Origin: a virus
Virus record (IMG/VR): IMGVR_UViG_3300027586_000002
Coordinates: 32,001 to 96,000 of that record
Strand: one strand, 5' to 3'
DNA length: 64,000 nt
Positions 28,847-44,449 of this stretch are shown here, in pieces (position 1 is the stretch's first letter; each line of letters begins with the position of its first letter). The notes beneath the pieces were generated by a model that saw only the letters and a program-made list of their open reading frames with translations, made no database searches and was not told the DNA's origin. The position numbers and the translations under genes were made by a program.

Positions 28847-29065
28847 ATGAATAAAGACGCGATCGTAAATGGATTTGTTAAAAGAGCAGCTGAACGCTGT
28901 GATGGTTTTCAGTTTAAACATGAGACCGCTGCCGAAATTATAAAGCAAGCTGGCTGGTGGGATAAGATGTCTAACCAAGGCTGTGTTACCAACAAGGTAG
29001 ACAAGAAATCTAATCGCAAACCTTTCAAGAACAGTTACTACGACAGCGCTAACAAGAATCTATAA
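28847..29065 (+). CDS. small protein carrying the 'MNKDAIVNGFVKRAA' tag
   Basis: Same N-terminal motif as 54.5-64 kb array; TTGATT-N17-TTAAAT promoter just upstream. Confidence 0.6.
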   Translation: MNKDAIVNGFVKRAAERCDGFQFKHETAAEIIKQAGWWDKMSNQGCVTNKVDKKSNRKPFKNSYYDSANKNL

Positions 29066-29105
29066 TTATTGATTGGCTAATATTAATCAAAGGTTATAGT
29101 CCAAC

Positions 29106-29198
29106 ATGAAGTATACATTAAATAAACAATCCCGCCGCCCAGCCAAATGGGCAGGGCTGGGTTTTGATGTATCAGGTAGAAATTCAGCACCTATGTAA
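29106..29198 (+). CDS. putative leader peptide MKYTLNKQSRRPAKWAGLGFDVSGRNSAPM
   Basis: 30-codon ORF 5 nt after a TATAGT -10 box, stop abuts antiterminator arm. Confidence 0.65.
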   Translation: MKYTLNKQSRRPAKWAGLGFDVSGRNSAPM

Positions 29199-29262
29199 AG
29201 CAGGATTAAATATAACTAAAAATTTAACCCTGCTGGAAACCTCCAGCGGGGTTTTGGATTTT
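29199..29262 (+). promoter_or_regulatory. attenuator: overlapping antiterminator and terminator
   Basis: AGCAGGATTAAAT(29199-29211)/ATTTAACCCTGCT(29222-29234) versus AACCCTGCTGGA-AACC-TCCAGCGGGGTT+TTGGATTTT(29226-29262). Confidence 0.7.
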
Positions 29263-29369
29263 AGGAGGAGCTTAATTTCCTCATACTGCTTTCATTAAAT
29301 TTAGTTTGAATCAAATAACTTTAATTATATTTATATAGTTAAAATCAACACATTAATCAAGGTTCAACC

Positions 29370-29442
29370 GCGCCATTAGCTCAGTTGGTAGAGCGTCAGT
29401 TTTCCAAACTGATTGTCGTGAGTTCAAATCTCACATGGCGCT
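29370..29442 (+). tRNA. tRNA-Gly(TCC)
   Basis: GCGCCAT/ATGGCGC acceptor, TCAGT-TTTCCAA-ACTGA, TTCAAAT T loop. Confidence 0.95.
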
Positions 29443-29449
29443 CCCTTTT

Positions 29450-29785
29450 ATGCAATCAATACATGACCTATCAGAAACTCAGTTAGAAGCAATTAATGCC
29501 TCATTTGATATTATAATCAATGTGGGTGTTAATAGGCTACATGATCTCAGTCCAAAAATGTCTGAAACAAATCGAGAACAAATGGAAGCTGTTAATGTTG
29601 ATGTGACCAAAGTTATTACCAAGGTCGAGAAAACACTTTCGGATGGTGGCAATCTAGGTAAAACTTCAATAGAAGATATTCTAAAGATCATTACCCTGGC
29701 TATTACTATTCTTGGAATAGCGCTGGGCGAAAATGATGATGACGTTGTAAAACTACGTAAGTTAAACAAAGAAATTAACGGATAA
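29450..29785 (+). CDS. hypothetical protein
   Basis: First ATG after tRNA-Gly. Confidence 0.6.
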   Translation: MQSIHDLSETQLEAINASFDIIINVGVNRLHDLSPKMSETNREQMEAVNVDVTKVITKVEKTLSDGGNLGKTSIEDILKIITLAITILGIALGENDDDVVKLRKLNKEING

Positions 29786-29824
29786 CTAGGCGTACCAGTT
29801 TGACTCCGCCTGCCCCAACCTTTT

Positions 29825-30115
29825 ATGAATGAAGAACAACAAGAAGCATTAGCCTCTGCTATGACACAAGCCCAGGCTGCCATGGAAGTGTTGAGTGCTA
29901 GACTAATTCTTATTTCAAAGAAAAAAATGAAAGCTATCGACAAAAACTTTCTAATTAGTGGCATTCAAGAAGAAAAAAAGACCCTGCTTGACTCAAAAGT
30001 AAAACCATCACAAAAGACAGTGCTAACTCTTATGTACAAAATGGCCCTGCTGGCTTTTGGAGCAAAAGACAAAGATGTAATAGCTTTCAAATTGGCGATA
30101 GCTAATTTGCCTTAA
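29825..30115 (+). CDS. hypothetical protein
   Basis: ORF track. Confidence 0.55.
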   Translation: MNEEQQEALASAMTQAQAAMEVLSARLILISKKKMKAIDKNFLISGIQEEKKTLLDSKVKPSQKTVLTLMYKMALLAFGAKDKDVIAFKLAIANLP

Positions 30116-30175
30116 AGTAATAAAAATAATTTGGTTCCTATATGCGCTAATTGTCACATAGGTTATTATCATCAC

Positions 30176-30251
30176 GGGGGCTGGGACTGCCTGGCGTGGT
30201 CATCTCATTTGCAATGAGAAAGTCAGACCGGTTCAACTCCGGTAGCCTCCA
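30176..30251 (+). tRNA. tRNA-Ala(TGC)
   Basis: GGGGGCT/AGCCTCC with G3:U70, TCTCA-TTTGCAA-TGAGA. Confidence 0.9.
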
Positions 30252-30272
30252 ATCCTATTTAGAAGCAATTTT

Positions 30273-30500
30273 ATGACAGAAACAACAGAACTGCCGGCGA
30301 TCGAGTTTGTAATCAAACTCAATAATCCTGAATACAAACGTGAAGCTGATGAGCTTTACAAGTCTATTCAGGAACTTATATCAAGTGATACTTCAAAGAA
30401 AGCCTCCGAGCTAGACCCTAATCTATCTTTCAGAGTAGTGTTGATTGAACATGATGGTAGTGTGGAAAGCATGGAGCCTGTACGATACATTCAACTCTAA
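30273..30500 (+). CDS. hypothetical protein ending PVRYIQL
   Basis: ORF track; hairpin follows. Confidence 0.55.
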   Translation: MTETTELPAIEFVIKLNNPEYKREADELYKSIQELISSDTSKKASELDPNLSFRVVLIEHDGSVESMEPVRYIQL

Positions 30501-30580
30501 GTTTAGATTATTGTGCTTGCTGCCTTTAGTTCGACATAATTATAAGGCAGCAAGCCGACATATAACAACAAACATTTCAC

Positions 30581-31078
30581 ATGAATATTATAATAAAACC
30601 ACTAAAAAAGAGACATAAACCAGTATTCAATACAATAAAAGAACTGCTTAGCTTTAAAGAAACCACAACATTTACAGAAATAGGAAGAATAGCAAAAATT
30701 AACAGTCTGGAGGTAATTCAGGTATGTAATAAGAATTCCGGTATGTTACATAAATATAACAATGGCAGTATAACCGGATTTTCTAGTGCGCCTATTACTG
30801 ATCTAAAGTTTAAGCTAGGCAAGACATTTAGATCTAATAAAATAGTTATTTCAAACGATGGGTTAAAAGCGGAGCTATTATTCTCAGGTCATGACGAGTT
30901 AAAAGCCACTTATAATTTTTCAACCTCTTTTAAATTGCACCAATATGACCCTTGGGCTAAAAAAGTTGTCATACCTGATACTGCAACGATTAGAACAGTT
31001 TTATCAGGTCATGGTATACAGGATGAGGTTGAGGTTGTTAAAGATCTTGATCTAGAACTTTATTGGGACGAAAAATGA
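30581..31078 (+). CDS. hypothetical protein
   Basis: ORF track. Confidence 0.55.
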   Translation: MNIIIKPLKKRHKPVFNTIKELLSFKETTTFTEIGRIAKINSLEVIQVCNKNSGMLHKYNNGSITGFSSAPITDLKFKLGKTFRSNKIVISNDGLKAELLFSGHDELKATYNFSTSFKLHQYDPWAKKVVIPDTATIRTVLSGHGIQDEVEVVKDLDLELYWDEK

Positions 31079-31119
31079 TAACTACATTACCCAGCCAAAA
31101 ATAGGATTAAATAAACTAC

Positions 31120-31422
31120 GTGATGAGAGTTAAAATAACAAAATTTGCAATATCAGACGAAACAGATGCACTTCCTCCTGCAGATAGGGATTCACATATA
31201 CCAGGGCGGGAACAAGCCGATAACTTAAGCCTTCCTATTGAGTATTGGATTGAGGGTCAAGCTGAGGAGCTGCCATGTGTAGGTCGCTGGTTTGTAATAA
31301 ACAGAGAAGTAAGGAATGGTGTTGTCACCCCAGGACTGTTTACTTCTTCTCCAATCGTCAAGATCAGTGGAGATATTTATGAGACAAGAAACTCTAAATA
31401 TCGAGTAGAACTTTTAAGTTAA
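31120..31422 (+). CDS. hypothetical phage protein
   Basis: ORF track; ends TRNSKY.VE. Confidence 0.6.
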   Translation: MMRVKITKFAISDETDALPPADRDSHIPGREQADNLSLPIEYWIEGQAEELPCVGRWFVINREVRNGVVTPGLFTSSPIVKISGDIYETRNSKYRVELLS

Positions 31423-31423
31423 T

Positions 31424-31501
31424 GCACCTGTAGCTCAGCCTGGTTAGAGCAGCGCCCTTTTAAGGCGTTTGTCGCGCGTTCAACTCGCGCCAGGTGCACC
31501 A
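31424..31501 (+). tRNA. tRNA-Lys(TTT)
   Basis: GCACCTG/CAGGTGC, GCGCC-CTTTTAA-GGCGT, encoded CCA. Confidence 0.95.
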
Positions 31502-31569
31502 CTTTATAAAAATTAATATGATAAAGTGTTAACAACCTTTCTAATTTAAGTAAACAACAATAACCCATA

Positions 31570-31758
31570 ATGGTTGACCAAAATATAATTCAACAACTCC
31601 GTGTGGTACTGCACAAGGCTACAGACATTTCAGTAGTATCGTCTGTAGAAGGTGACAATTTAAAATATGATATAAAGATAACTATACCTATGGAAGTAAA
31701 CAACATAGGCGCAGACGTTGGTCTAGTACTAAAGCCAGAGCGGCGAATTTCGATATGA
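31570..31758 (+). CDS. small protein ending KPERRISI
   Basis: Overlaps next ATG (ATGA). Confidence 0.55.
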   Translation: MVDQNIIQQLRVVLHKATDISVVSSVEGDNLKYDIKITIPMEVNNIGADVGLVLKPERRISI

Positions 31759-31973
31759 AGACAATCATACATGTTAACCAACATGTTATTAAGAAAAATC
31801 AAAAGACTGGCGAAAGAAATCCTGTGTTAACTGTTAAGACCTATAAGTCTAATTTTAAAGCTAATATGGTGAAGATCAAAGGTCCTTGTAAAGTTGTCTA
31901 TAGCCCAAATAAGCCACTTTCATGTGGAGCAAGGGTCTGGATAGAGACAATAGGAGAAGTAAAGTTAAATTGA
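31755..31973 (+). CDS. conserved-looking small phage protein
   Basis: IHVNQH.I..N...P..TVK...CGARVWIET. Confidence 0.65.
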   Translation: MKTIIHVNQHVIKKNQKTGERNPVLTVKTYKSNFKANMVKIKGPCKVVYSPNKPLSCGARVWIETIGEVKLN

Positions 31974-31986
31974 AAACTAGTGAACT

Positions 31987-32319
31987 ATGACAAAACAGCT
32001 ACAACTGAACTTGGTTAAGGGAATCATGCAAAACTACCCCGAGTCTGGGGCCGGTGCGGTGCTTCAATGCATAGATTGGAAGTACAGCCAGAGCGTCTAT
32101 GAATTTGAGGACGGCGATGAGGGCAAGTTGTACACCTTGACGGAAATGGAGCTTCTGGCCGCAGTGCCGATCATGTTCATGAATTGGCCGAAAGGTTGTA
32201 CGCCGCTGCCTGTGACTTTTACCGAGGAGAGCGTCGAAGAGTGGTGTTGTCAGGCGGACGCTAACGACCACGATGCGTTCGTTCAAATCGCGGTCTTTGG
32301 GGAGGTTATTTATGGCTGA
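31987..32319 (+). CDS. GC-richer hypothetical protein
   Basis: Ends D..D.FVQIAVFGEVIYG. Confidence 0.65.
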   Translation: MTKQLQLNLVKGIMQNYPESGAGAVLQCIDWKYSQSVYEFEDGDEGKLYTLTEMELLAAVPIMFMNWPKGCTPLPVTFTEESVEEWCCQADANDHDAFVQIAVFGEVIYG

Positions 32320-32348
32320 ATTTCGTGAACTAACTATTTAATCATAAC

Positions 32349-32840
32349 ATGAGGATAATAGGAAAACATCAGAATAAGAAGAAACCTTTAGCTAAGTTTG
32401 CCGATAAAAAAGGGCAACCATTGGTCGTCTTATGTCAAATGGTTTCCGTGGACCAGAAGGAAAGGAGAAGCTTCAAGACTTTTGTAGATACCAAGCTGTC
32501 CGGGGATTACGCTAAAGGTGGAAAAGCATATGCGAAATTGAAGAATAGGCCAACCAATGACATTTTTGGGGAAAAGACAAAGCTCCAGAAGTTTGTGAAG
32601 ATGCATTTTGATTTCACGAAGTTTAGTGATACAGATTGGGAAAACTACTGGCTTCTGACTCAGCACTGTGATTTCAATAGACAGTTCCAGAAGGCAGCTC
32701 TGAAGGTAATAACAAAGTTCAGACCTGACTCAGACGAGATGAAGTTTCTCACCGACAGGATCTCCTGTAGCTTGAGTGGAACACAGAAATTCGGCACGCA
32801 AAACATCTGCGAAAAAGATGATGTAGATGTAACTAGATAA
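32349..32840 (+). CDS. DUF6624-like protein
   Basis: WLLTQHCD...FQ...L...LTDRI.....QKFGTQ. Confidence 0.6.
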   Translation: MRIIGKHQNKKKPLAKFADKKGQPLVVLCQMVSVDQKERRSFKTFVDTKLSGDYAKGGKAYAKLKNRPTNDIFGEKTKLQKFVKMHFDFTKFSDTDWENYWLLTQHCDFNRQFQKAALKVITKFRPDSDEMKFLTDRISCSLSGTQKFGTQNICEKDDVDVTR

Positions 32841-32842
32841 AT

Positions 32843-33376
32843 ATGAACATCTTTTACTTAGAGCACGATGTCAAAAACTGTGCAAAGATGCACGTAGATA
32901 AACATTGTGTAAAAATGATATTGGAATATGCACAATTGTTGAGCACGGCTCACAGAGTACTTGACGGTATTCCATTAGTTGGAGTTAGCCAAACTGGCAG
33001 GAAACAAACTCAGTATGTTCTTCCTGATAATCGGGAATCTGACTTGTATTCTGCAACACATATCAACCATCCTTCCGGTGTGTGGGTGAGACAAAGTTGT
33101 GCTAACTATGATTGGTTATTCAAAATGTTTGTTGCTCTAATGGATGAGTACACATATCGCTACGGTAAAGTTCACGCTACCAGCAGATTGACAGAACATT
33201 TGAGGTCCAGGCCAAAAAATATACCGGACGGTTCTTTTACTGAACCCACACCCGCCATGCCCGAACAATACAAAGTATTCGGTGATTCAATCAAATCGTA
33301 TAGAAATTATTATTTAGGTGATAAAAGACGGATGTTTTCTTGGAAACTCCGGGAAGTTCCGCCTTGGTGCCTCTAG
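32843..33376 (+). CDS. pyrimidine-dimer DNA glycosylase-like protein
   Basis: MNIFYL...HVDKHCVKMILEYAQLLSTAH...THINHP...YR.YY. Confidence 0.75.
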   Translation: MNIFYLEHDVKNCAKMHVDKHCVKMILEYAQLLSTAHRVLDGIPLVGVSQTGRKQTQYVLPDNRESDLYSATHINHPSGVWVRQSCANYDWLFKMFVALMDEYTYRYGKVHATSRLTEHLRSRPKNIPDGSFTEPTPAMPEQYKVFGDSIKSYRNYYLGDKRRMFSWKLREVPPWCL

Positions 33377-33482
33377 GAAGTTAGGTTATATCTGCGTAAT
33401 AGGAAATATGGGAGTAGAATATATAATAATTTCTAGTGTGGTAGATAAGCTTTAAATAATGGAAGGAGTATAGTGTATACCT

Positions 33483-34469
33483 ATGGAAGAAGAAATTGCT
33501 TTAAGCTATGACGATGTGTTGCTGATACCAAAGTATTCAGAACTAGAAAGTAGAGCCAAGGCCATCACTGAAGTCGGTCTGTGTGGTTCTAAGTTTAAAC
33601 TACCAATTGTGCCCGCTAATATGAAGTCGGTCATTGATATAAAGACAGCCAAGTGGTTGTCACAGAATGGGTACTTTTATATATATCACAGATACGATAA
33701 GACTAATTTTGAGTTTGTTAAGAATGCAATAGCTGAGAAATGGGAGCTTATAAGCATCAGTACTGGGGTTAACGAAGACAGTGAGATAGACCTTAGGCTT
33801 ATTGCTAACGCTGATGAAAACTTATATGTTGATTTCATAACAATAGATGTGGCTCACGGGCACCATCTAAAGGTTAAGAATCGAATAAAGCTCATCAAGG
33901 AGCTGTTCCCTGAAACAAAGGTCATAGCGGGCAACGTAGCAACACCAGAGGCCATCAGGGACTTAGCCGCGTGGGGAGCGGATGCGGTGAAAGTGGGCAT
34001 TGGACAAGGGTCTATTTGTACAACAAGGTTTCAAACAGGATTTAGTGTTCCTATGTTTACCTGTGTTGCTTCATGTTGTGACGACTTTTTTATCGAAAAT
34101 AGTCATGATATAATTCAACAGACAATCATACCTATAATTGCTGACGGTGGAGTCAAGTATATAGGAGATATTGCTAAAGCTCTTGCCGCTGGTGCTACTA
34201 TGGTAATGTCTGGGGCTTTGTTTGCCAATTGTATAGATTCGCCCGCAGAAATAATAAACGGCAAGAAACAATACTTTGGCTCAACCTCATTTGAGGCCAA
34301 GAAAGAAAACAAACATATTGAAGGCCGTCTCTTACAAATAGAGACTGGCTGTACAATAGAACAACGACTCATTGAAATACAGCAGGCACTACAAAGCTCA
34401 ATTAGCTATGCTGGTGGAATAGACCTGACTTGTTTTAGAGACGTTGGGCATGTAATTATAAACAAGTAA
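33483..34469 (+). CDS. guaC: GMP reductase (IMPDH/GMPR family, no CBS domains)
   Basis: [43 protein letters not shown]. Confidence 0.9.
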
Positions 34470-34475
34470 GTTAAT

Positions 34476-34537
34476 GGCACTCCTATGAGTTAGGGACGGA
34501 TAATAGCCCGTTGATGAGTTCGAATCTGTCAGTGCCT
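34476..34537 (+). ncRNA. minimal/degenerate tRNA-like element
   Basis: GGCACT/AGTGCC closing stem, two small hairpins, TTCGAAT T loop. Confidence 0.4.
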
Positions 34538-34547
34538 CTTTTACAAT

Positions 34548-34952
34548 ATGATAATAGAATGTGGAGGACACAAATGGTACCCAACTAAAGGAGTCATTAA
34601 GTATAATCTAGATGGCTCTGTATTTGTCCACGCCGATAACTCTATTGTCGAGTATTATCAAGCCGTGGTAAAGATGCACCTACACCTGAAGTTAAACCCC
34701 CCGTTTAGTGGGGCACACATTACTGTTGTTTCTTCTAAGTGGGAGAATTCCGTAAAACACTCATCATACTGGAAAAAACGTGAAAGTGAAGAAATCATCT
34801 TCTATTACACTTCAACTATTTTCAGATCTCAGAGCTATTTTTGGTTAACTGTTCATTCACATGACATGATCAATCTTAGGACTGAGCTTGGGCTTGGAGA
34901 GAGGTATCATCCTTTACATTTAACAATAGGTAATATAAGATTTTCAAAATAA
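34548..34952 (+). CDS. 2H phosphoesterase-family protein
   Basis: Two HxT motifs: AHITV and LHLTI. Confidence 0.65.
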   Translation: MIIECGGHKWYPTKGVIKYNLDGSVFVHADNSIVEYYQAVVKMHLHLKLNPPFSGAHITVVSSKWENSVKHSSYWKKRESEEIIFYYTSTIFRSQSYFWLTVHSHDMINLRTELGLGERYHPLHLTIGNIRFSK

Positions 34953-34983
34953 CTATGAAAATTGAAAAGATAATTTAAATAAT

Positions 34984-35403
34984 ATGTCGTTTATAAGACC
35001 AACAAGTAGCCCTGACGGGCTTTACATATACCACAGCATTGAAAACACCGTGTCGGTGCATGCTAGGGATGTATATGTAAAAGGCAAAAAGAAGAAGTCA
35101 GAATTTCCTGACATAAAGTATAAACAGTTCTTGAAGCTGTGCCAGAAGTGTAAGAAGGCTAATAGCTATCTAAGAACGCCGATTACTGTGGGGGAATTAT
35201 CTCTTGAAGCAGTGGAGATAAATAAGCGTGACATGCCTGGCTTCGGCAAGTATGGTGTTGATACACAGATGTACATGTGTGACCATCGTATAAAGCTAAG
35301 CAATGGAACACATAGCATACTAATGTATTGTGTTACCTGGGCCTACATCATGAATAATGTTTTAAGTTCTGAAGATTTTTACAGAGAAAAGAAGAAAAAA
35401 TAA
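34984..35403 (+). CDS. hypothetical protein
   Basis: ORF track. Confidence 0.55.
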   Translation: MSFIRPTSSPDGLYIYHSIENTVSVHARDVYVKGKKKKSEFPDIKYKQFLKLCQKCKKANSYLRTPITVGELSLEAVEINKRDMPGFGKYGVDTQMYMCDHRIKLSNGTHSILMYCVTWAYIMNNVLSSEDFYREKKKK

Positions 35404-35408
35404 TTTAA

Positions 35409-35493
35409 CGGAATGTAGACCGTAACTTGGTACCGGGTACGATTTGGGGTCGTATGCTTAACCGCCGTGCAGGTTCAAATCCTGTCATTCCGA
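35409..35493 (+). tRNA. tRNA-Pro(TGG) with long variable region
   Basis: CGGAATG/CATTCCG-A, TACGA-TTTGGGG-TCGTA, 14-nt variable region. Confidence 0.85.
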
Positions 35494-35537
35494 AATTTAT
35501 GTTGACTTAACCGATAAAATTTCATAGCGTAACAGCT

Positions 35538-36956
35538 ATGAATAAAAAATTATCGGTTAAACAACTAGATCAAATATTAAGTAGCAGTAAGACAGAGTAT
35601 ACAGCCAACGTTAAAGCCGCTAATTTTCTGGCTGATCTGTGTAAAAAGTACAATGCTCACGATAATGGCAAATCTCGTGAAGTATTAAGACTGTATCTAA
35701 GTAAGTATAAGCTAGATACTTCTCATTGGTACAATCGACCAAGCAAGTATACAAATGTAGAAAAGATTTGTCCTGTATGCGAAACTAAGTTTACAACACA
35801 GCTTAATCACAAAAACGAGAAGACTGTATGCTCTGTAGGATGCGCAAACACTTATTTCCCTAGACATACTGAAGAAAGTCGCAAGAAGATAAGTGACGCG
35901 CTATTACATAATGCTGCTGTGCTTGGGAGAAAAGCTGAGCATGTAATATTATGTAAAGAATGTGGTAATCCTAAGATAACAAAGCGAAAGCATCAAGCAT
36001 TTTGCTCTGTTATTTGTTCTAAATCATATAGAGAAAGAGACCCGGTTTATAGACAAAAACTTAGAGATATACAACTAAAGAGGATCAAAGATGGAACCCA
36101 TACTGGATGGAGATCTAGGAATAAACCATCTTATCCTGAAACCTTCTTTATGAAGGTTCTAGATAATAACAAGATTCCTTATGAATTTGAGAAACCGGTA
36201 GGCAAGTATTTTATAGATTTTGCTATTAATGATAAACAAATAGCTTTGGAGATTGACGGTAAACAACATCTATTACCAGATAGAGTTATTAAAGATAAGG
36301 AAAAAGATAAATATTTAACTGAACAAGGATGGTTGATGCATAGAATTCCTTGGACAAATATATCCTGTGATAAAGGTAAAGTTTATATTAGAAATGAAAT
36401 AAATAAGTTTGTAGCCCTATATAACAACAGTAGTAATAAATTTAACATGACCACAAATACAACAATAACGGAATTAACAAAACAAGAGTTGGTAGCATTA
36501 ATGTCAGAAGTGAAGGAACAGGTGCAGTCGCTGTCAGGAAAGCTAGATAAGAATGTAGCTATTACTGAGTCGATGGAGCAACAGCTGAAGCAAATCTTTA
36601 ATTCAAATAGAAGAGAAGCTGCTCCTGCCCACCTGATGGAGCTGCTTAAGGCTTCTGACACGCTAAAGCCTAAGTTAGCAGTTGATCAAAAGACAGGTAT
36701 TGGAATGACCAAGCCGTATTTTGTACAATTAATATCCAAAGACGGGCGCCTCGTCCTCGGAGCATCTCACGGCAAGCACGGTATTGAAGCAAAATTCTTC
36801 GAGGGTCGTGAAGGAGCTGAAGAATATTACGCTGGATTACCAAATAAAAATTGGATCAAACATGCAGTTGAAAAGCTAGGCTTTACTAAGAGCTTTGTTA
36901 AGCTAAGCAATAAGCAGCAATTGAAATACCCCACTAAGATCGTAAATAAGAAATAA
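35538..36956 (+). CDS. Zn-finger/DUF559 (Vsr-like) endonuclease fused in frame to a downstream hypothetical protein (internal ATG 36447)
   Basis: CPVC, CSVGC, CKEC, FCS..C; YFIDFAI...LEIDGKQH...D..L...GW..RI.W; TTGACT-N17-TAGCGT promoter. Confidence 0.75.
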   Translation: MNKKLSVKQLDQILSSSKTEYTANVKAANFLADLCKKYNAHDNGKSREVLRLYLSKYKLDTSHWYNRPSKYTNVEKICPVCETKFTTQLNHKNEKTVCSVGCANTYFPRHTEESRKKISDALLHNAAVLGRKAEHVILCKECGNPKITKRKHQAFCSVICSKSYRERDPVYRQKLRDIQLKRIKDGTHTGWRSRNKPSYPETFFMKVLDNNKIPYEFEKPVGKYFIDFAINDKQIALEIDGKQHLLPDRVIKDKEKDKYLTEQGWLMHRIPWTNISCDKGKVYIRNEINKFVALYNNSSNKFNMTTNTTITELTKQELVALMSEVKEQVQSLSGKLDKNVAITESMEQQLKQIFNSNRREAAPAHLMELLKASDTLKPKLAVDQKTGIGMTKPYFVQLISKDGRLVLGASHGKHGIEAKFFEGREGAEEYYAGLPNKNWIKHAVEKLGFTKSFVKLSNKQQLKYPTKIVNKK

Positions 36957-36965
36957 CATATTAAT

Positions 36966-37205
36966 ATGTTTGCTGATGAATGTAATCTAGACGGCGACAA
37001 GAACGCTCCTGGTCACGGAGAACAATGCTGCTGTAATTGCAGGTCATTAAAAATAGATCATTCTCATCCACTGTCAGATGGTAAGCCTTGTACTAACCTA
37101 CGAGGCTTCATCTGCACAGCTGATGGAGAACAAGCTTATTCAGGCTGGAGGCCACACGGTCTATGCGAATTGTGGTACCCTCGTGTTGAGGCCAAAGTTT
37201 CTTAA
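36966..37205 (+). CDS. small Cys-rich protein
   Basis: CCCNC...C...C...HGLCE. Confidence 0.55.
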   Translation: MFADECNLDGDKNAPGHGEQCCCNCRSLKIDHSHPLSDGKPCTNLRGFICTADGEQAYSGWRPHGLCELWYPRVEAKVS

Positions 37206-37234
37206 TTCGCAGAATTTTCCAAAAATAAAATAAT

Positions 37235-37320
37235 TCCAAGGTAGGAGAATTGGTAAACCCAGAAGACTGTTAATCTTCCGTCGTAAGACATTGCTTGTTC
37301 AAATCAAGCCCTTGGAGCCA
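37235..37320 (+). tRNA. tRNA-Asn(GTT) with long variable arm
   Basis: TCCAAGG/CCTTGGA-G-CCA, GAAGA-CTGTTAA-TCTTC, V arm GTC-GTAA-GAC. Confidence 0.9.
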
Positions 37321-37341
37321 CTTCCAATCAATTAATTAATT

Positions 37342-37884
37342 ATGCCTACTCATTGGTTTACTGCAGATCACCACGCCGGCCATGCAAAAATAATAGAATA
37401 TTGCCGACGCCCATTCCGTGATACCCACGAGATGGACGAAACGATGATAAACAATCATAACTCTGTTGTTCAGCCAGGCGACTTTGTTTATATACTTGGA
37501 GATGTTGCTTTTAAGAATCCTGCTAACTATATACGCAGGCTCAATGGGCACAAGTTCATTATTAGAGGTAACCATGATAAGCATATAGAAGAGTGCAAAA
37601 GCCTGGTTGGTTGGATAAGAGACTTCCAACAGATAACAGTTGAAGGACAAAAGATAGTCCTAATGCATTATGCCATGCGTGTTTGGCCAAGTTCCCATCA
37701 CGGCGCTTATCAGCTTTATGGGCATAGTCACGGCACATTGGAAGATGATCCTAACGCCCTGTCTATTGATGTAGGAGTAGATTGTCACAACTTCTTTCCT
37801 ATATCGTTTAAACAGGTACAAGCTAAGATGGCTAATAAAAACTTTAAGCCAGTAGACCACCACAACGCTGAAACTAATGATTGA
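37342..37884 (+). CDS. calcineurin-like metallophosphoesterase
   Basis: DHH.GH, LGD, GNHD, HY, GHSH. Confidence 0.9.
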   Translation: MPTHWFTADHHAGHAKIIEYCRRPFRDTHEMDETMINNHNSVVQPGDFVYILGDVAFKNPANYIRRLNGHKFIIRGNHDKHIEECKSLVGWIRDFQQITVEGQKIVLMHYAMRVWPSSHHGAYQLYGHSHGTLEDDPNALSIDVGVDCHNFFPISFKQVQAKMANKNFKPVDHHNAETND

Positions 37885-38056
37885 AGACGCACTTAAACAG
37901 CAATTAAAGTTGATTGAGGCAACAAACGCCTGGCTTAAAGATGAAACCAATAAGTACATTACTTCTCCTGTAAAGGATAAGAACAAACTTGTGGAGCTTC
38001 AATCCAGGCATAGGCAGTTAATAAAAGATATAGACAGGTTAATAGAACAAGATTAA
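37877..38056 (+). CDS. small coiled-coil protein (59 aa)
   Basis: Read manually: MIEDALKQQ...LIEQD*. Confidence 0.45.
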   Translation: MIEDALKQQLKLIEATNAWLKDETNKYITSPVKDKNKLVELQSRHRQLIKDIDRLIEQD

Positions 38057-38075
38057 TAATACGTTAATAGTTAAT

Positions 38076-38152
38076 GCTCCTGTAACTCAATTGGCTAGAG
38101 TGCAGAGTTTCTACCTCTGAAGTTGTAGGTTCAAATCCTACCAGGAGCACCA
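38076..38152 (+). tRNA. tRNA-Arg(TCT)
   Basis: GCTCCTG/CAGGAGC, CAGAG-TTTCTAC-CTCTG, CCA. Confidence 0.93.
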
Positions 38153-38160
38153 AATTTAAT

Positions 38161-38526
38161 ATGGACAATATAAAACTAAATAAGTTAAAAGCCAAGGCAA
38201 TGAAAGCCGGTAAGTTCTTGGATCGTATCCCAGAGGAACAGACAGAAGCAGTATTTGCTACAGCTCTAAAGTATCGTCCTAAGAATTTAATGGATAAGAT
38301 CAATCTATTCCATAAAGAGGTAGGAGACACCCAATATTATGAAATGTTAGGGACTGCGTGGTTTTTGGAGTTTCTTGATATCTGGGATGACGAGCAACGT
38401 CAGGTTAACACAGTCGCCTTTGTGGAGGAGCTCTATAAGTTCATCCCTGAAGGCGAAAGTGTTACTCAAGATGACGTTTCTGCCTGGGTTCAATTACAGA
38501 AAATGGCAGAAGAAGAAAACGATTAA
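38161..38526 (+). CDS. hypothetical protein
   Basis: ORF track. Confidence 0.6.
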   Translation: MDNIKLNKLKAKAMKAGKFLDRIPEEQTEAVFATALKYRPKNLMDKINLFHKEVGDTQYYEMLGTAWFLEFLDIWDDEQRQVNTVAFVEELYKFIPEGESVTQDDVSAWVQLQKMAEEEND

Positions 38527-38565
38527 GTTTTACAGCAATAAGATTGGACTGTACTTTATCAAATT

Positions 38566-39273
38566 ATGTCAAAAACTTTAATTATAAGCGATATACACCA
38601 CAGATGGCAAAAAGCTGAAAAGCTTATATTAAAAGAGAAGCCAGATAAAACCATATTTTTAGGTGACTACTTTGATGATTTTGATGACTCTTGTCTTGAA
38701 GCAAGGCAGACTGCCCAATGGCTAAAGACTAGTCTTACATTTAAGAATAGAATACATCTTAGAGGTAATCATGACACACATTATGAAAGCCAAAATACAA
38801 GGCTTCAATGCTCTGGTTATGAGTTGAAGAAAGATATAGTTATAAACGAGGTAATGAAAGCTAAGGATTGGCGCAAGCTTTATTGGTTTCATTATGAGAA
38901 TGGGTGGTTATTTACTCATGCTGGGGCCCACCTTTTATATGTAGGGCCGCAAGTTAATCGTATTGAAATATACATGGCCGAAGAAGCTAAAAAAGCTAAC
39001 CGTGTATATTTTGAGTCAAAAGGAAGTCACTGGTTCTGGCACATCGGGGCTTCAAGGTATGGCTGGGACGGCATAGGAGGTATTACCTGGTGTGATGCCA
39101 ACCGTGAATTTGATGCTGTTCCAGGGCAGAAACAAATCTTTGGACATACTCCTCAGCAAGTAACCAATGTTGATGAGCTATGGCTTGATGAGAACAACCT
39201 ATGCCTTGATACTCATTCCAATCATTATGCTTTGATGGATGAGCATGGAAATATAAATGTTAAAAAAGTTTAG
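38566..39273 (+). CDS. calcineurin-like metallophosphoesterase
   Basis: SDIH, LGDYFD, GNHD, THAG, GHT. Confidence 0.9.
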   Translation: MSKTLIISDIHHRWQKAEKLILKEKPDKTIFLGDYFDDFDDSCLEARQTAQWLKTSLTFKNRIHLRGNHDTHYESQNTRLQCSGYELKKDIVINEVMKAKDWRKLYWFHYENGWLFTHAGAHLLYVGPQVNRIEIYMAEEAKKANRVYFESKGSHWFWHIGASRYGWDGIGGITWCDANREFDAVPGQKQIFGHTPQQVTNVDELWLDENNLCLDTHSNHYALMDEHGNINVKKV

Positions 39274-39279
39274 TAAAAT

Positions 39280-39363
39280 GGACGGGGTCCGGCTGGTCGA
39301 GGAAGCAGTCTTGAAAACTGTTGGGGTTAATAGCCCTCTAGGGTTCGAGTCCCTACCCGTCCG
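39280..39363 (+). tRNA. tRNA-Ser(TGA)
   Basis: GGACGGG/CCCGTCC-G, GCAGT-CTTGAAA-ACTGT, long V arm. Confidence 0.93.
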
Positions 39364-39372
39364 ATCACTTTT

Positions 39373-39615
39373 ATGTATCCAGAACAACGCCCATGGCAAG
39401 TCAGACATTTGTTTAAAGCATTACGTGTATTAGTTACAACTGAAACTAATCGTTGTTTCTTTAAAGAGGAGTTCAAACAAATTGATTATTGCTCAATACA
39501 CGTAGCTATAAAGAACGGTAATTTAATAGAAGCCATAAAGATATACAGATCCTATAATAATTGTAGTCTGGTAGAGGCTAGAGATTTTATATTTATGTTG
39601 GCAGGTAAGCCATAA
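39373..39615 (+). CDS. small protein with ribosomal L7/L12 C-terminal-like motif
   Basis: GNLIEAIKIYR....SLVEARDFI. Confidence 0.55.
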   Translation: MYPEQRPWQVRHLFKALRVLVTTETNRCFFKEEFKQIDYCSIHVAIKNGNLIEAIKIYRSYNNCSLVEARDFIFMLAGKP

Positions 39616-39642
39616 TATTTTTAGACCAGAAAATCCAAAATT

Positions 39643-40074
39643 ATGCGTAAAATAAAATTTAGAGTTTGGGACGAGAAATACAATCAATGGGATACTTCAC
39701 CTATCACCTTTTATTCTAATGAATTAGCGGTTAAGCAAGGTAGAGTTATTCAGCAGTTCACCGGACTTAAAGATAAGAATGGTAAAGAAATTTACGACGG
39801 TGATATTGTTTCCTTCAATTATACGGTTGGAGACTTCGCGTGGGAAGCTATGGACAATGATGAGCGGGAGGTAAACAAAGAGATGATGGGCAAACTATAC
39901 GTTTGCGTAGTCGTTTGGTGCGAATGGAATTGTGGATTTATGATGGCGGACGGGAGCCTTGAATCTACCCATATTCAATTTCCTATGCTCTACGCTAAGA
40001 CCGGGAAAGTTATCGGTAATATATTTGAGAATCCAGACTTATTAGTACCTATTTTTTATCACGAGGTGGTGTAA
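39643..40074 (+). CDS. YopX-family protein
   Basis: MRKIKFRVWD...QFTGLKDKNGKEIYDGDI...VIGNIFENPDLL. Confidence 0.9.
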   Translation: MRKIKFRVWDEKYNQWDTSPITFYSNELAVKQGRVIQQFTGLKDKNGKEIYDGDIVSFNYTVGDFAWEAMDNDEREVNKEMMGKLYVCVVVWCEWNCGFMMADGSLESTHIQFPMLYAKTGKVIGNIFENPDLLVPIFYHEVV

Positions 40075-40141
40075 CGGTAGCACGAAGGCCGGCAAGCCTG
40101 CTTGCCGGCTTTTGTTTTGGTTCAATTCCAGACCTACGTGT
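40060..40141 (+). ncRNA. tRNA-like RNA whose anticodon arm is a 12-bp hairpin with a 4-nt loop
   Basis: Acceptor CACGAGG/CCT(A)CGTG, D arm GTGT-AACGGTA-GCAC, T arm TTTGG-TTCAATT-CCAGA. Confidence 0.7.
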
Positions 40142-40195
40142 TATAACTGTAACTTAAATATTGGTCAGCCATTCATTTTGTTGTATGATAACCTT

Positions 40196-40357
40196 ATGAC
40201 AACATTTGAATGGTTACATCGTGAAGCTGAGAAGGCCCTTGTCAAGCGCGCCAATGCAACCACAGTTCAGGAATGTCAGGAATTAAACAGCTGGCTTAAT
40301 GAACTAAGAGGCAGGCTAAACAGCCATATTCGGGAAACCAGGAAACAAAGAAAATAA
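40196..40357 (+). CDS. small hypothetical protein
   Basis: ATG 40196 within listed ORF 40112. Confidence 0.45.
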   Translation: MTTFEWLHREAEKALVKRANATTVQECQELNSWLNELRGRLNSHIRETRKQRK

Positions 40358-40504
40358 CTCTTACCAAAGGCAAAGATGCAGGTAATATAGTAGAAGTTAA
40401 ACACGCACCTTTCGTGTTAGCTAATGATATACCTAACTTCGTAAAAAATAATGAATGCTTGCTGGGATTAATTCCGAAGTATTCCAAAAGATTAAGTTTC
40501 AAAC

Positions 40505-40578
40505 GTCGCCTTCGTATATTGGTAATACTTCTGGTTTTCATCCAGAAAAAAGCAGTTCGATTCTGCTAGGCGATACCA
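40505..40578 (+). tRNA. tRNA-Glu(TTC)
   Basis: GTCGCCT/AGGCGAT, TCTGG-TTTTCAT-CCAGA, CCA. Confidence 0.9.
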
Positions 40579-40620
40579 ATACATAAATAGACAGGCAGTT
40601 TATCTGCCTCAATACGTAAT

Positions 40621-41304
40621 ATGCCATATCCAATATTAGATCAAACATTTAAAAATCTAACCATACACGAGTATAACACAGCTAAAGAAGAGCTGGTTAA
40701 ATACCAACCAAAGACAATAGAGTCAAAGTATAACCGGGTAATGTTTGCCCAGTTATCGATAAAACAAAATTGTACCAATAATGTCAGAAGTTATCGTCAT
40801 TTGAAGAAAACATTTGAGGCTACTTTCAAAGATGAAGAGTCCGTAAAGGCTGCGGTAAAAGCATCCAAGGCAGGGTTGATCAAAGTAAGGTCCAAGGGAC
40901 TCTGGGTTTCAAACAAAAAGCACAATGAAGACAATTTGTTTTATACAAAGAGAGAAGGAGAAACCTGGCGTGAGTGCAGGTCAAGATGGCGTGGGCAGAT
41001 ATACGGCATAGGACTTGCCAAGATATCTTTTACATTGGAGCTGATGTACCCACTAGATGCAAAACTTGTATGCCTAGACACACATTTATTAACCCAATTT
41101 GGACATAATAAAGATAGGCTCAATCCTATTGAGTATCAAACTTATGAGGATTACTTCCTTGCTAAATGTGAAGAAATGAAGCTTACGCCTACAGCAGCGA
41201 GAGAAGCAATATGGAGAAAACTTGCTGGTGAGAACAAAGAGAACGAACCATCATGGCTTACAAGATCTTTTGAAGACGAATTAACTGTGCCCGCGGTAGC
41301 TTAA
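40621..41304 (+). CDS. HhH-GPD DNA glycosylase-like protein (Ogg-like)
   Basis: IYGIGLAKISF HhH motif and CLDTHLL catalytic Asp. Confidence 0.65.
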   Translation: MPYPILDQTFKNLTIHEYNTAKEELVKYQPKTIESKYNRVMFAQLSIKQNCTNNVRSYRHLKKTFEATFKDEESVKAAVKASKAGLIKVRSKGLWVSNKKHNEDNLFYTKREGETWRECRSRWRGQIYGIGLAKISFTLELMYPLDAKLVCLDTHLLTQFGHNKDRLNPIEYQTYEDYFLAKCEEMKLTPTAAREAIWRKLAGENKENEPSWLTRSFEDELTVPAVA

Positions 41305-41373
41305 CTGGCTACAGTAATAGCCTACAAAACTATAGCATAATGGAGGCAACTCCATTATGCTGCACTAAAAATT

Positions 41374-41838
41374 ATGGACAGAGCAGACCTACAAGAAATA
41401 ATCGATTGGCCAACTGTGCTTAAACAAGATAGATGCGCAGGAGGGCATAGAGCAGTTATGAGTAATATATTTAGTGAAACTGATGCTAAGGTTATAGCTT
41501 GGTACCAAGATGACCTATATGAAGGGGAATTGGCTATTGCTTATCAGTTTTATAAAGACGGAACAATATGTTTGATTACTGATTTTTTTGGGTCTTGCTC
41601 CGGCTGTGATGCTTGGGAGGGCGTAGGCGATAAAGAAGCTGAAGATCAGATACACACCCTGGTTGCTAATTCCAGGGTGTTTAAATGTGTAAGAGACAGC
41701 ATAGCCTTCCTTAATAATGACATAGACAATAAACCAGAGAACTTTGGTTTTAGAATTGCAACGAATCTAACAGACACATTGGAAAATATTGACGATATTA
41801 CTTTTGATGAGCCAGAAGGCAGGAAGATTAGTTTATAG
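41374..41838 (+). CDS. hypothetical protein ending EPEGRKISL
   Basis: FGSCSGCDAW motif. Confidence 0.65.
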   Translation: MDRADLQEIIDWPTVLKQDRCAGGHRAVMSNIFSETDAKVIAWYQDDLYEGELAIAYQFYKDGTICLITDFFGSCSGCDAWEGVGDKEAEDQIHTLVANSRVFKCVRDSIAFLNNDIDNKPENFGFRIATNLTDTLENIDDITFDEPEGRKISL

Positions 41839-41912
41839 GCGAGTGGCGCAGCGGTTAGCGCAGATGCTTTACACGCATTTGGTCGGGGGTTCGAGTCCCT
41901 CCTCGCCTACCA
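41837..41912 (+). tRNA. tRNA-Val(TAC)
   Basis: AGGCGAG/CTCGCCT, GATGC-TTTACAC-GCATT, CCA. Confidence 0.95.
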
Positions 41913-42014
41913 TTTTTATGACCCCCGGGTAGTTACTACGTATGGCTAAAACGGTATAATATATTGATAGACCAATGTGCCTGTTGCCCATTGGCTGTCC
42001 GTTCCTACCTAACT

Positions 42015-42431
42015 ATGAAAGATACAAGAAAAAGAAACAAAGCAACTTACCAAGCCATGAAAAAAGTAGCTTTGCTATTTGTGAGTGCGAAGCCGATTGC
42101 TGAAGTATTAGACATCTTCAGTGATCATCAAGCAGATGGCATGATCCAAATCGAGCACGACCCAGCTCGTATTGTCGGGCAGCGATTTGATCTCGTCTTG
42201 TTCGGGAAATCCGCGCCAGCCAGAGGTTGGTTCACCGGCACCAGGATGGCTGGGTTTGTCCCCAGTCGGACTGTGACAGTCATACCAAAAATCTGCAGTG
42301 TCTTGGACGCCGTAGTAGCCATACACTTAATGCTCTGCAATCCTGAGATTAAGGGACACGAGTTAACTAAGCTTTGGCCAACGGGTCCTGGCTCCCGCAA
42401 AGCTCGAGCCAGGCTCATACCCTGGGATTAG
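42015..42431 (+). CDS. GC-richer hypothetical protein
   Basis: ATG 42015 downstream of GGTATAAT box. Confidence 0.5.
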   Translation: MKDTRKRNKATYQAMKKVALLFVSAKPIAEVLDIFSDHQADGMIQIEHDPARIVGQRFDLVLFGKSAPARGWFTGTRMAGFVPSRTVTVIPKICSVLDAVVAIHLMLCNPEIKGHELTKLWPTGPGSRKARARLIPWD

Positions 42432-42445
42432 TAGGAAGTTGTAGT

Positions 42446-42480
42446 AAAGGAAAAGCAGGTGTTACGCCTGCTTTTCCTTT
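42446..42480. terminator. bidirectional terminator between convergent genes
   Basis: AAAGGAAAAGCAGGTG-TTA-CGCCTGCTTTTCCTTT. Confidence 0.7.
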
Positions 42481-43162
42481 AACTATTAGCTTTGAGCTTG
42501 ATATCAATTATCTTTTTAATCTTTGCATAGTGTTTAACGGCTTCAGCTTCATTAAACCTGCCCATGGCTCTAGTATCAACAGAATGTACATCAATACCAA
42601 ACTCAGCACATTTATTGATCTTGCGACGGTCGTTGCGCTGTACGGCCCTTAGCTGCTTATCCCCATAGATAGGGTCGTAGTGTACAGGCCCATTGATTTC
42701 AATGCCCATATCTAATGATGGTATGAATATATCTAACTCTGATCGTTTTAGAAGAGTACGGTCATTATAGTGTATAGTGAGGTTTGGGTAGTCTAGGTTA
42801 AGCCTAGCTTCAGTCCATACTTCAAACTGTGAACGTGTCATGCCCTTCTTTCCATGAGCAGCATTATAACGATTTGCACAAGCAGAGCAGCAGAAGCCCA
42901 CTCTGGTTCTGGCAATCTCTACTCTGCGTCTTTTAAATAAGGCATTACACTGTCTACAGTTATAATCTTGCGCTGTGTTATCAAACTTAACTTTACAGTT
43001 GCCGGAACAAAATTCTACAGTTATAAGCTCCTTAGCTTCAACAGCCTTCATGTACTCATGCTTTTCTCTATGAAAGGCCTTGGCACACTGAACACATTGA
43101 AATCTGAGATCGTCAAGATGAGTGGCTTCCTTGAATTCTTTATCCTTAAACAACTTAATCAT
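42479..43162 (-). CDS. Zn-finger PD-(D/E)xK/Vsr-like endonuclease
   Basis: CVQC, FCSGNC, CRQC, FCCSAC; ELDIFIP...IEINGPVHY...D..K...C. Confidence 0.7.
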   Translation of the reverse strand: MIKLFKDKEFKEATHLDDLRFQCVQCAKAFHREKHEYMKAVEAKELITVEFCSGNCKVKFDNTAQDYNCRQCNALFKRRRVEIARTRVGFCCSACANRYNAAHGKKGMTRSQFEVWTEARLNLDYPNLTIHYNDRTLLKRSELDIFIPSLDMGIEINGPVHYDPIYGDKQLRAVQRNDRRKINKCAEFGIDVHSVDTRAMGRFNEAEAVKHYAKIKKIIDIKLKANS

Positions 43163-43209
43163 TTAGTCATACTACGCTTATGCAATCTTTTTTGGAATCA
43201 AAATAAAGC

Positions 43210-43659
43210 ATGAAAGAAATCACCGGGGATATCTGGGAAATAAGAAAAACCACAGGCAGCTGGGTGTGCGTGCCAACCAACGCCATAGTTAATTCTAGTG
43301 GATTAGCGGTAATGGGAGCAGGCGTTGCGTTACAAGCAGCGGAGAAATTTAAACATCTTCCAAAAACACTAGGTCAGAAACTTAGTAAACATGGTAACAG
43401 AGTCTACGCTTTCATGGACGATCAGATATTCACATTCCCAACCAAACAAAATTGGAGAAGTGAGTCTGAATTAGATTTGATTGCTGGTAGCGCCATGCAG
43501 TTAAGAGAGCTGTTAGACGCAATATCAAGCGCCAGCCTTAATGGTAAGATACTGCTCCCAAGGGTTGGTTGTGGTAACGGTAATTTAAGCTGGGACAAAC
43601 AGGTAAAGCCTATTGTTTCAGCTATACTTGACGATAGATTTTTAGTAGTAACCTTATAA
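43210..43659 (+). CDS. macrodomain ADP-ribosyl hydrolase (Poa1/TARG1/DarG-like)
   Basis: GDIW, VMGAGVA, FPTK..WR, LPRVGCGNG.L.W. Confidence 0.85.
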   Translation: MKEITGDIWEIRKTTGSWVCVPTNAIVNSSGLAVMGAGVALQAAEKFKHLPKTLGQKLSKHGNRVYAFMDDQIFTFPTKQNWRSESELDLIAGSAMQLRELLDAISSASLNGKILLPRVGCGNGNLSWDKQVKPIVSAILDDRFLVVTL

Positions 43660-43688
43660 ACAACTTTAGTTATGGCAAAAAAGACGTG

Positions 43689-43717
43689 TTGACAATCGCC
43701 TGATAATCCATTAAGTT
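43689..43717 (+). promoter_or_regulatory. sigma70-like promoter
   Basis: TTGACA-N17-TAAGTT. Confidence 0.55.
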
Positions 43718-43903
43718 TACATCGAATAGTAAACAGTTCTTTGTGAATTTGAATGGAGGTGATTAAGGTGTTTGACTGTATGATGCAGTCGAAAAGCTAT
43801 GTAAGTAGTTGTAAATAGGCTACTTAATGTTTAGAAAGTAAGAAAACAGCAAAGCAATCAAGGCTAGTTCAAGGTTATAAATAACTAAAAAAGGAAAAAA
43901 AAT

Positions 43904-44008
43904 ATGTTCAGTCATCTGTTGGTAGCGGTTGTGTCTTTTGTAGTTGGCGCGCTGCTTGCACGCAAAAATTGCAAAAAAAATTGCGGTATTGATTCGGATA
44001 AACGGTAA
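43904..44008 (+). CDS. 34-aa single-TM peptide
   Basis: MFSHLLVAVVSFVVGALLARKNCKKNCGIDSDKR; AAGGA upstream, terminator hairpin 44026-44052 downstream. Confidence 0.5.
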   Translation: MFSHLLVAVVSFVVGALLARKNCKKNCGIDSDKR

Positions 44009-44062
44009 AAACAATTAACCAAACTAGGCTGGCGATGAAAGTCGTCAGCCTTAATTTATTTT

Positions 44063-44449
44063 ATGGCAGAATACGAAACAAACAACACACGTAGAATCAT
44101 TATTGACGAGGAACCTCGTGAAGGTCCTCAGATTGACAATTCATCAGGTAAACGTCTTTTGATACTAAACCCTGAAGGAAAGTTTCCTTTCAAGTTTAGT
44201 ACTTATAGTGCAAAGCTCATCGTCCAAGTTCCTGATGTCATTAGCGCTTTTGTTGAATCACAAGCCAAAGAATTAGGTGATGATGTCCCGGAGGGAGTAA
44301 TCATAGAAGAGTACAAAGGCAGCCCATTGCTAGTTCTTAATGCGACAGGTAGCTACCCGTTCAGGTTTGGTCTATATAAGGCCAGGCTTATTATAGAAAA
44401 CATGGAAGCAATTAAGAAGTTCGTCGCAAGCGACGGAGCTGAAATTTAA
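44063..44449 (+). CDS. protein with two internal ~45-aa repeats
   Basis: G..LL.LN..G..PF.F..Y.A.LI......I..FV.S twice. Confidence 0.7.
   Translation: MAEYETNNTRRIIIDEEPREGPQIDNSSGKRLLILNPEGKFPFKFSTYSAKLIVQVPDVISAFVESQAKELGDDVPEGVIIEEYKGSPLLVLNATGSYPFRFGLYKARLIIENMEAIKKFVASDGAEI

Follow-up and report, generated by a model that had tools for sequence, protein, structure and literature searches.

Introduction

The leader-peptide attenuators of enterobacterial amino-acid operons include trpL, hisL, pheL and leuL as well as the multivalent thrL and ilvGMEDA. T-box riboswitches, the sensors of uncharged tRNA, make direct contact with it by means of a specifier loop and a conserved T-box sequence; an open reading frame (ORF) is not needed. 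Phage-encoded tRNAs are currently discussed in terms of codon-usage matching and of escape from host tRNA-cleaving defences; to our knowledge, little has been established about the regulation of tRNA genes by the phages that carry them. A full-text literature search returned no published account of leader-peptide attenuation of phage tRNA genes. The trn operon of Anabaena sp. PCC 7120 is described, in excerpts of two reports, as a supernumerary, horizontally mobile long tRNA array that is silent and is induced on impaired translation (PMC8421152; PMC10272220), and an excerpt of the second assigns its control to the ribbon-helix-helix repressor TrcR acting at the promoter (PMC10272220).

The locus described here carries the parts of a leader-peptide attenuator in front of a block of phage tRNA genes, and a distant relative of the phage carries the same parts in the same place. 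The reading that we favour, with reasonable though limited confidence, is that of a ribosome-mediated (leader-peptide) transcription attenuator which stands at the entrance of the phage tRNA-gene block and would sense general decoding speed.

Results

Parts of the element ahead of the first tRNA gene

The window is the whole 64,000-nt stretch of DNA that was analyzed, bases 32001–96000 of a 106,940-base IMG/VR virus record estimated to be about half complete. We refer to this record as G000 and to a relative, an IMG/VR contig comprising a 54-kb fragment, as G001. Fifteen tRNA genes, all on the plus strand and dispersed among small ORFs, form a 17.6-kb array in the window (29370–46954). The candidate attenuator fills the 304-nt gap between a 72-aa ORF (28847–29065) and tRNA-Gly(UCC). 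The 72-aa ORF, which lies just upstream of the leader and starts MNKDAIVNGFVKRA, is isolated, short and on the plus strand. An earlier note, made from the letters of the window, had claimed a promoter-like site, a 30-codon ORF, an antiterminator, a terminator with a U tract and the first tRNA; all of these are present at the positions listed in Table 1.

Table 1 Features of the candidate attenuator in the window and of its counterpart in G001.
Feature	Genome	Position	Strand	Description
Sigma-70-like promoter candidate	Window	29073–29100	+	TTGGCT (29073–29078), 16-nt spacer, TATAGT (29095–29100); starts 8 nt past the stop codon of the upstream 72-aa gene
Leader ORF	Window	29106–29198	+	MKYTLNKQSRRPAKWAGLGFDVSGRNSAPM; 30 sense codons, 16 different amino acids; ATG at 29106, TAA at 29196–29198
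Weak "region 1"	Window	29128–29135	+	7 bp with one mismatch, paired with 29200–29207 in the full-length minimum-energy fold
Hairpin within the ORF, then TTTT	Window	29138–29165	+	CCCAGCC / GGCTGGG, −12.4 kcal/mol
Antiterminator 5′ arm, "region 2"	Window	29199–29211	+	13 nt; first base immediately after the stop codon
Antiterminator 3′ arm, "region 3"	Window	29222–29234	+	Pairs 12/13 with 29199–29211, −10.4 to −11.5 kcal/mol; 9 nt in common with the terminator 5′ arm
Intrinsic terminator hairpin	Window	29226–29253	+	12-bp stem with 7 GC pairs, 4-nt loop, −21 kcal/mol, z = −4.1
Terminator U tract	Window	29254–29262	+	TTTTGGATTTT context
AT-rich spacer, terminator to first tRNA	Window	29263–29369	+	No sigma-70-like site of at least 9/12
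tRNA-Gly(UCC), first of 15 phage tRNAs	Window	29370–29444	+	tRNA prediction
Promoter candidate	G001			TTGACA-N17-TAAAGT, 10/12; a few nt past the upstream stop codon
Leader ORF	G001			MTLLHTSRGTQPVKRTGWDNYAQIPALTSAEFMF; 34 codons; ATG 13 nt past the −10 hexamer
Antiterminator	G001			14-bp helix, −20.7 kcal/mol, P = 0.005 against shuffles; TAG stop codon of the leader ORF inside the 5′ arm
Terminator	G001			−16.5 kcal/mol, U tract; overlapped by the antiterminator 3′ arm, then TTTTTGTATTTT
Anti-antiterminator (1:2) helix	G001			ORF codons 2–8 with the antiterminator 5′ arm and loop; about 20 bp in the minimum-energy fold

The ATG of the window leader ORF lies 5 nt past the −10 hexamer and lacks a Shine-Dalgarno (SD) sequence; the leader mRNA may be leaderless. 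The missing SD sequence carries no weight either way, because SD-like motifs occur upstream of G000 genes at the background rate of 9% (109 ORFs of at least 100 aa), in upstream regions that are A-rich. This background rate suggests that the host probably initiates translation without SD pairing. At codons 10–11 the leader has CGC twice in tandem; the frequency of this codon is 4.7 per 1000. Like the pause hairpin (1:2) of trp, the hairpin within the ORF, together with its U run, could possibly pause RNA polymerase and synchronize it with the ribosome. To cover the antiterminator 5′ arm, a ribosome has to be at the stop codon or on the last few codons.

From the parts and their geometry we infer that the ORF is translated and that its ribosome decides between two hairpins. 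Transcription would enter at the candidate promoter or by read-through of the upstream genes, and the polymerase would synthesize in turn the 30-codon ORF, the antiterminator, beginning with the base after the stop codon, and the overlapping intrinsic terminator. A ribosome reaching the stop codon before the terminator 3′ arm is made would cover the antiterminator arm, so that the terminator would form and transcription would end 108 nt before tRNA-Gly. A ribosome slowed earlier in the ORF would let the antiterminator form first, and the polymerase would then read on into the tRNA genes and the intervening small ORFs.

Chance expectation in the window

We compared the individual parts with chance expectation. 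The terminator clearly exceeds it (Table 1). The promoter match of 9/12 is at the background level, with 60 sites in the scan vs. 57 expected from shuffles, and the antiterminator, at −11.5 kcal/mol, is no better than those obtained from shuffled upstream sequence (P = 0.22). The probability of finding by chance an ORF of 25–45 codons that starts with ATG and ends no more than 6 nt from the antiterminator arm is 0.03. Taken alone, the window data confirm the observation as accurate and make the attenuator reading only suggestive.

The tRNA genes might also be served by a promoter of their own, and the earlier note had named the AT-rich stretch before tRNA-Gly as a possible site. Our scan of the spacer detected no sigma-70-like site there, and none at the scan threshold between terminator and first tRNA in G001, with the proviso that the sigma-70 consensus may not be that of the host. 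A Bacteroidota-type promoter motif was rejected as a candidate: the leader contains no TAnnTTTG, and the enrichment of this motif, about 1.65-fold, is equal on the two strands and gives no strand-specific signal. When k-mers were searched for a promoter motif peculiar to the phage, a tandem repeat and tRNA sequence swamped the result. The repeat lies outside the window, at about bases 10807–11742 of G000 (window coordinates −21193 to −20258), where 936 nt without a long ORF carry a repeated CGACCAC / CCGACCACTACGAC-type unit that dominates the intergenic k-mer count.

The tRNA block behind the element

The element had been proposed to gate the whole 17.6-kb array, which is more than the locus allows. 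Strong intrinsic terminators lie inside the block at 40082–40115 (+, 15-bp stem) and 44026–44051 (+, 11-bp stem), and because of them the block would have to be transcribed in several units. The gated portion would comprise at most the tRNAs Gly, Ala, Lys, Pro, Asn, Arg and Ser, along with the ORFs between them. Two of the tRNAs predicted by ARAGORN, tRNA-Pro (35409–35493) and tRNA-Asn (37235–37320), are 85–86 nt long, unusually long for these isoacceptors, and the Rfam tRNA model gives tRNA-Pro a score of just 38 bits.

A link of the element to anticodon nucleases and to neighbouring counter-defence genes, also proposed in the earlier note, found no support. A Pfam scan covered nine ORFs of the block and, as a tenth, the vWA-like gene upstream; it identified an IMPDH/GMP-reductase-family enzyme and a DUF559/endonuclease-like protein and gave a weak, sub-threshold match to Pyr_excise. 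One ORF of the tRNA block we take, from our own reading of its translation, to be a metallophosphatase.

Relatives of the phage

When the leader and the upstream genes were compared at the nucleotide level with cultured phages, tRNA matches only or nothing came back, and a search with the DNA polymerase found no close cultured relative. Within the G000 genome the leader has no other copy; the idea that it belongs to a repeat family was therefore rejected. IMG/VR single-protein scans with the two upstream genes gave no matches, nor did an exact-pattern scan for the terminator. For the upstream vWA-like gene, one 96%-identical and one 54%-identical relative were present in Logan/ENA, and alignment-based scans with this gene recovered only distant loci (at most 38% identity), none with an adjoining tRNA array. 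A GTDB genome scan with the DNA polymerase found nothing. A separate DNA polymerase scan yielded one relative, and a later alignment-based scan eleven more. In the polymerase tree, ten relatives form a tight clade with 0–7 tRNAs each; G000 and G001 fall outside it, each on a long branch.

The DNA polymerase of G001 is 55% identical to that of G000, and G001 carries 31 tRNAs. The two genomes are collinear across the replication/recombination block; in both, the tRNA-rich block comes next, and several of its genes are common to the two.

A second instance in a distant relative

The 350-nt non-coding gap directly ahead of the first tRNA of G001 contains the same parts as the window, in the same order (Table 1). 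The G001 antiterminator is the stronger of the two competing hairpins (−20.7 vs. −16.5 kcal/mol). In sequence, the stems of G001 and of the window are unrelated, and the leaders have no conserved core nucleotides in common; on this sequence comparison, the architecture is conserved between G000 and G001 and the letters are not. The peptides show no significant similarity (P = 0.13 to 0.21), and leader-peptide conservation was rejected on these values. A GGCTGGG block common to both leaders was likewise set aside, since it lies in different reading frames and, by our own estimate, at chance level. The position of the G001 leader ORF has a chance probability of 0.05, and the joint chance of an ORF ending at the antiterminator arm in the window (0.03) and in G001 (0.05) is about 0.0015.

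Between the G001 attenuator and the first tRNA lie two small Cys-rich, zinc-ribbon-like ORFs of about 85–96 and 67 aa (locus L119, 3158–2665, minus strand), which would be the first products of read-through.

The earlier note had suggested looking for the same device upstream of tRNAs in related phages, and G001 is the one instance that emerged; the device is absent upstream of the small tRNA clusters in 10 of 10 relatives of the polymerase sister clade. A search with one gene from the tRNA block recovered two loci, and both lack the device. The recurrence of the same parts in the same order, made of unrelated stems, supports the core of the original proposal, namely that ribosome occupancy of the leader ORF would select antiterminator or terminator ahead of the tRNA genes. 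The support for an attenuator thus comes from two instances, both read from sequence.

The background rate of such elements was estimated with loose criteria (a terminator, an overlapping hairpin and a short ORF) applied to 110 terminators in 80 phage loci that have the metallophosphatase gene in common. Besides G001's own, 4 of 109 terminators passed (about 4%), and none of the four is near a tRNA array. Within G000 and G001, no other element found with the loose criteria sits in a non-coding gap ahead of tRNAs. Other tRNA-rich contigs have only the metallophosphatase gene in common with this phage.

In the sister clade, a conserved gene lies about 1.5 kb downstream of the end of the polymerase gene, and in four relatives it is followed by a very strong terminator of −20 to −26 kcal/mol (L134, 1154–1186; L141, 1941–1969; L142, 1888–1920; L137, 1540–1567). 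Three of these four copies of the gene end in a similar Gly-rich tail (...GGHK, ...GGVK, ...GGGLLN). As read from these sequences, the terminator marks a conserved transcription-unit boundary in those phages.

Predicted switching of the two leaders

We simulated the ribosome by masking a 30-nt footprint and folding the remainder. The free G001 leader folds at −63 kcal/mol (z = −6.5), with the long 1:2 helix enclosing three hairpins and the terminator intact; the masked folding accordingly predicts the 1:2 helix plus terminator when no ribosome is present. With the A site at codons 4–10, the antiterminator is predicted to form and the terminator is lost, and with the A site at codons 14–30 or at the stop codon, the terminator is predicted to form. 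In this model, masked folding of G001 reproduces the three classic trp-type states. The thermodynamic model gives read-through for stalls at codons 4–10 only, unless queued ribosomes were to keep region 1 covered.

At equilibrium, the window behaves differently from G001: the terminator wins in almost every masked state (−21 vs. −11.5 kcal/mol for the antiterminator), and because of this the switch would have to be kinetic. When the terminator 3′ arm has not yet emerged, the antiterminator is predicted to form in all states except that with a ribosome at the stop codon. The 1:2 pairing of the window is a 7-bp helix only, which the antiterminator outcompetes while the terminator is still incomplete, whereas the G001 helix comprises about 20 bp. 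Folding of both states, which the earlier note had called for, thus yields mutually exclusive hairpins, and the predicted states that precede the terminator 3′ arm agree with the geometry it had described, in a kinetic form in the window.

Codon content of the leaders

The window leader was reported to contain exact cognate codons for nine phage tRNAs (ACA, TTA, AAA, CAA, CCA, GCA, GTA, TCA, AGA) and wobble codons for three more (AAT, GGG, CTG), and our reading of the ORF gave the same codons. Compared with 29-codon stretches from genes of the phage itself, exact codons for 9 of the 15 tRNAs correspond to P = 0.10; when wobble is allowed, 12 of 15 tRNAs are touched, and P varies with the null from 0.04 to 0.15. 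With 23 different codons in 30, codon diversity is ordinary. The CGC, TGG, TCC and GCC codons of this leader have no matching phage tRNA, and the sensor therefore does not just reflect the tRNAs that the phage encodes.

The G001 leader played no part in forming the hypothesis and for this reason serves as an independent test of the multi-codon idea. It uses 32 different codons in 34 (P = 0.002 against dinucleotide shuffles of the leader) and 19 of the 20 amino acids, with all four Thr codons, both Gln, both Phe, three Ala and three Leu codons. At least one readable codon is present for 26 of the 31 phage tRNAs, a coverage with P = 0.0002 against windows of G001's real genes, P = 0.0007 against stop-free windows in any frame and P = 0.004 against dinucleotide shuffles of the leader. 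Such a leader would be difficult to account for if the ORF were not read as codons, and it would fit a sensor of general decoding speed. The tRNA sets of the two phages contain no suppressor tRNA. The proposal that the leader surveys the whole tRNA pool is supported in G001, on both tRNA coverage and codon number, and does not reach significance in the window from which it was drawn.

Neither leader contains a run of one regulatory codon. Because of this, and because of the extreme codon diversity in G001, the leader would report overall decoding speed, or general tRNA supply; overall decoding speed, rather than the supply of one amino acid, is the most likely signal.

Discussion

Among the alternatives, the one that survives best keeps the attenuator and replaces the ribosome with a ligand, a protein or an RNA. 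The element would then be an OFF riboswitch with a closing helix, internal hairpins and an expression platform, and the ORF would be incidental. The G001 fold has the usual layout of such a switch, with a closing helix around three hairpins, then the terminator, and a helix 3′ strand that overlaps the antiterminator; that the leader peptides are unconserved also agrees with it. Yet the leaders lack the conserved core nucleotides that aptamers would show, and a search with the riboswitch, T-box and other cis-regulatory families of Rfam 15 brought only tRNAs to the gathering score in 27500–48000 and, in E-value mode, no family on either leader. An incidental ORF would, moreover, have to end exactly at the antiterminator arm in both genomes (joint chance about 0.0015), and the extreme codon diversity of G001 (P = 0.002 to 0.0002) would be left unexplained. 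We consider a switch of this kind unlikely.

Rather unlikely, too, is a self-contained small gene, either a structured small RNA of about 150 nt or a micro-protein of 30–34 aa, with its own promoter and terminator, no role in tRNA-gene regulation and an alternative pairing that is a by-product. A promoter-like site, a structured RNA and a strong terminator do form a complete unit in both genomes, and released attenuator RNAs act in trans elsewhere, as excerpts of work on rnTrpL describe. Against a micro-protein stands the unconserved peptide sequence, and a plain small RNA would have no need of the perfect 14-bp helix of G001 (P = 0.005), which competes with both the 1:2 helix and the terminator. 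In both genomes, furthermore, the first tRNA comes directly behind the element, and no promoter-like site intervenes.

An ordinary intrinsic terminator of the upstream gene block, accompanied by chance by an ORF, a promoter match and an alternative hairpin, is very unlikely: the promoter, antiterminator (P = 0.22) and 9/15 codons (P = 0.10) of the window are all compatible with chance, and about half of all terminators find some upstream partner on folding, but the full feature set recurs in G001 at the equivalent place in unrelated sequence, the triple feature has a background of only about 4%, and the codon diversity of G001 would go unexplained. The second instance makes pure chance unlikely.

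We therefore return to the ribosome-mediated attenuator. The same device stands ahead of the tRNA block of a distant relative, which suggests that production of the phage's own tRNAs is probably confined to times when translation is slow. A further step, possible but doubtful, would be to regard the leader as a "time-of-flight" gauge, in which an ORF of maximally varied codons makes the ribosome late whenever almost any tRNA is short, be it through host shut-off, starvation or tRNA-cleaving defences. The delay would open the phage tRNA genes and restored speed would close the terminator, a homeostatic feedback that would have been kept across very deep divergence and may have arisen independently in other tRNA-rich phages.

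If the attenuator reading is true, the classic trp/his logic has been put to a new use, in which the ribosome gauges tRNA supply directly and switches on tRNA genes. The element would, in addition, be a compact sensor, of natural origin, for the speed of translation. The Anabaena array, as far as the excerpts cited describe it, shows that conditional tRNA arrays are biologically real, and the phage element would be a second, RNA-based solution (PMC8421152; PMC10272220). The two are alike in placing a tRNA array under conditional control linked to translational stress; in the same excerpts, the Anabaena system is cellular and relies on a repressor, with no leader peptide or terminator switch.

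A further candidate comes from Caulobacter phage phiCbK (JX100813, 46000–53200), in which three tRNA blocks each have an annotated terminator directly upstream. Ahead of a Phe-Val-Ile-Ile-Val-Gln-Gln block, phiCbK has a 32-codon ORF (51341–51439) that lacks annotation and is rich in Gln, Phe, Val and Ile, and a strong alternative hairpin predicted from its sequence overlaps the terminator. A Pro-Pro-Lys-Lys-Leu-Leu-Leu-Ser-Ser block of the same phage is preceded by the 45-aa gp083, in which Ser, Leu, Thr, Ala, Pro and Lys are abundant. phiCbK is an unrelated phage of a high-GC host, with several cassettes whose leaders are each biased to the few tRNAs behind them, whereas the present locus has a single cassette, a broad codon set and a scattered array.

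Like T-box riboswitches, the element would tie tRNA status to the choice between antiterminator and terminator; unlike them, it has an ORF and no match to the T-box model. In Rfam, the His_leader family (RF00514) aligns over its full model length with 19.8 bits in the window and 18.2 bits in G001, and these scores lie below the gathering score of 49 and therefore indicate architectural resemblance only, not membership. With the enterobacterial attenuators the element has in common a short leader ORF, mutually exclusive antiterminator and terminator hairpins and an antiterminator arm that a ribosome at the stop codon covers, to which G001 adds the 1:2 anti-antiterminator. The ORF length of 30–34 codons is close to that of the ilvGMEDA and leu leaders, and the distance from stop codon to U tract, 49–56 nt, is close to that of the trp leader. 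The element differs from these systems in having no codon run, a broad codon set (32/34 in G001) and no SD sequence, and in being encoded by a phage, where it fronts tRNA genes and small phage ORFs instead of biosynthetic enzymes.
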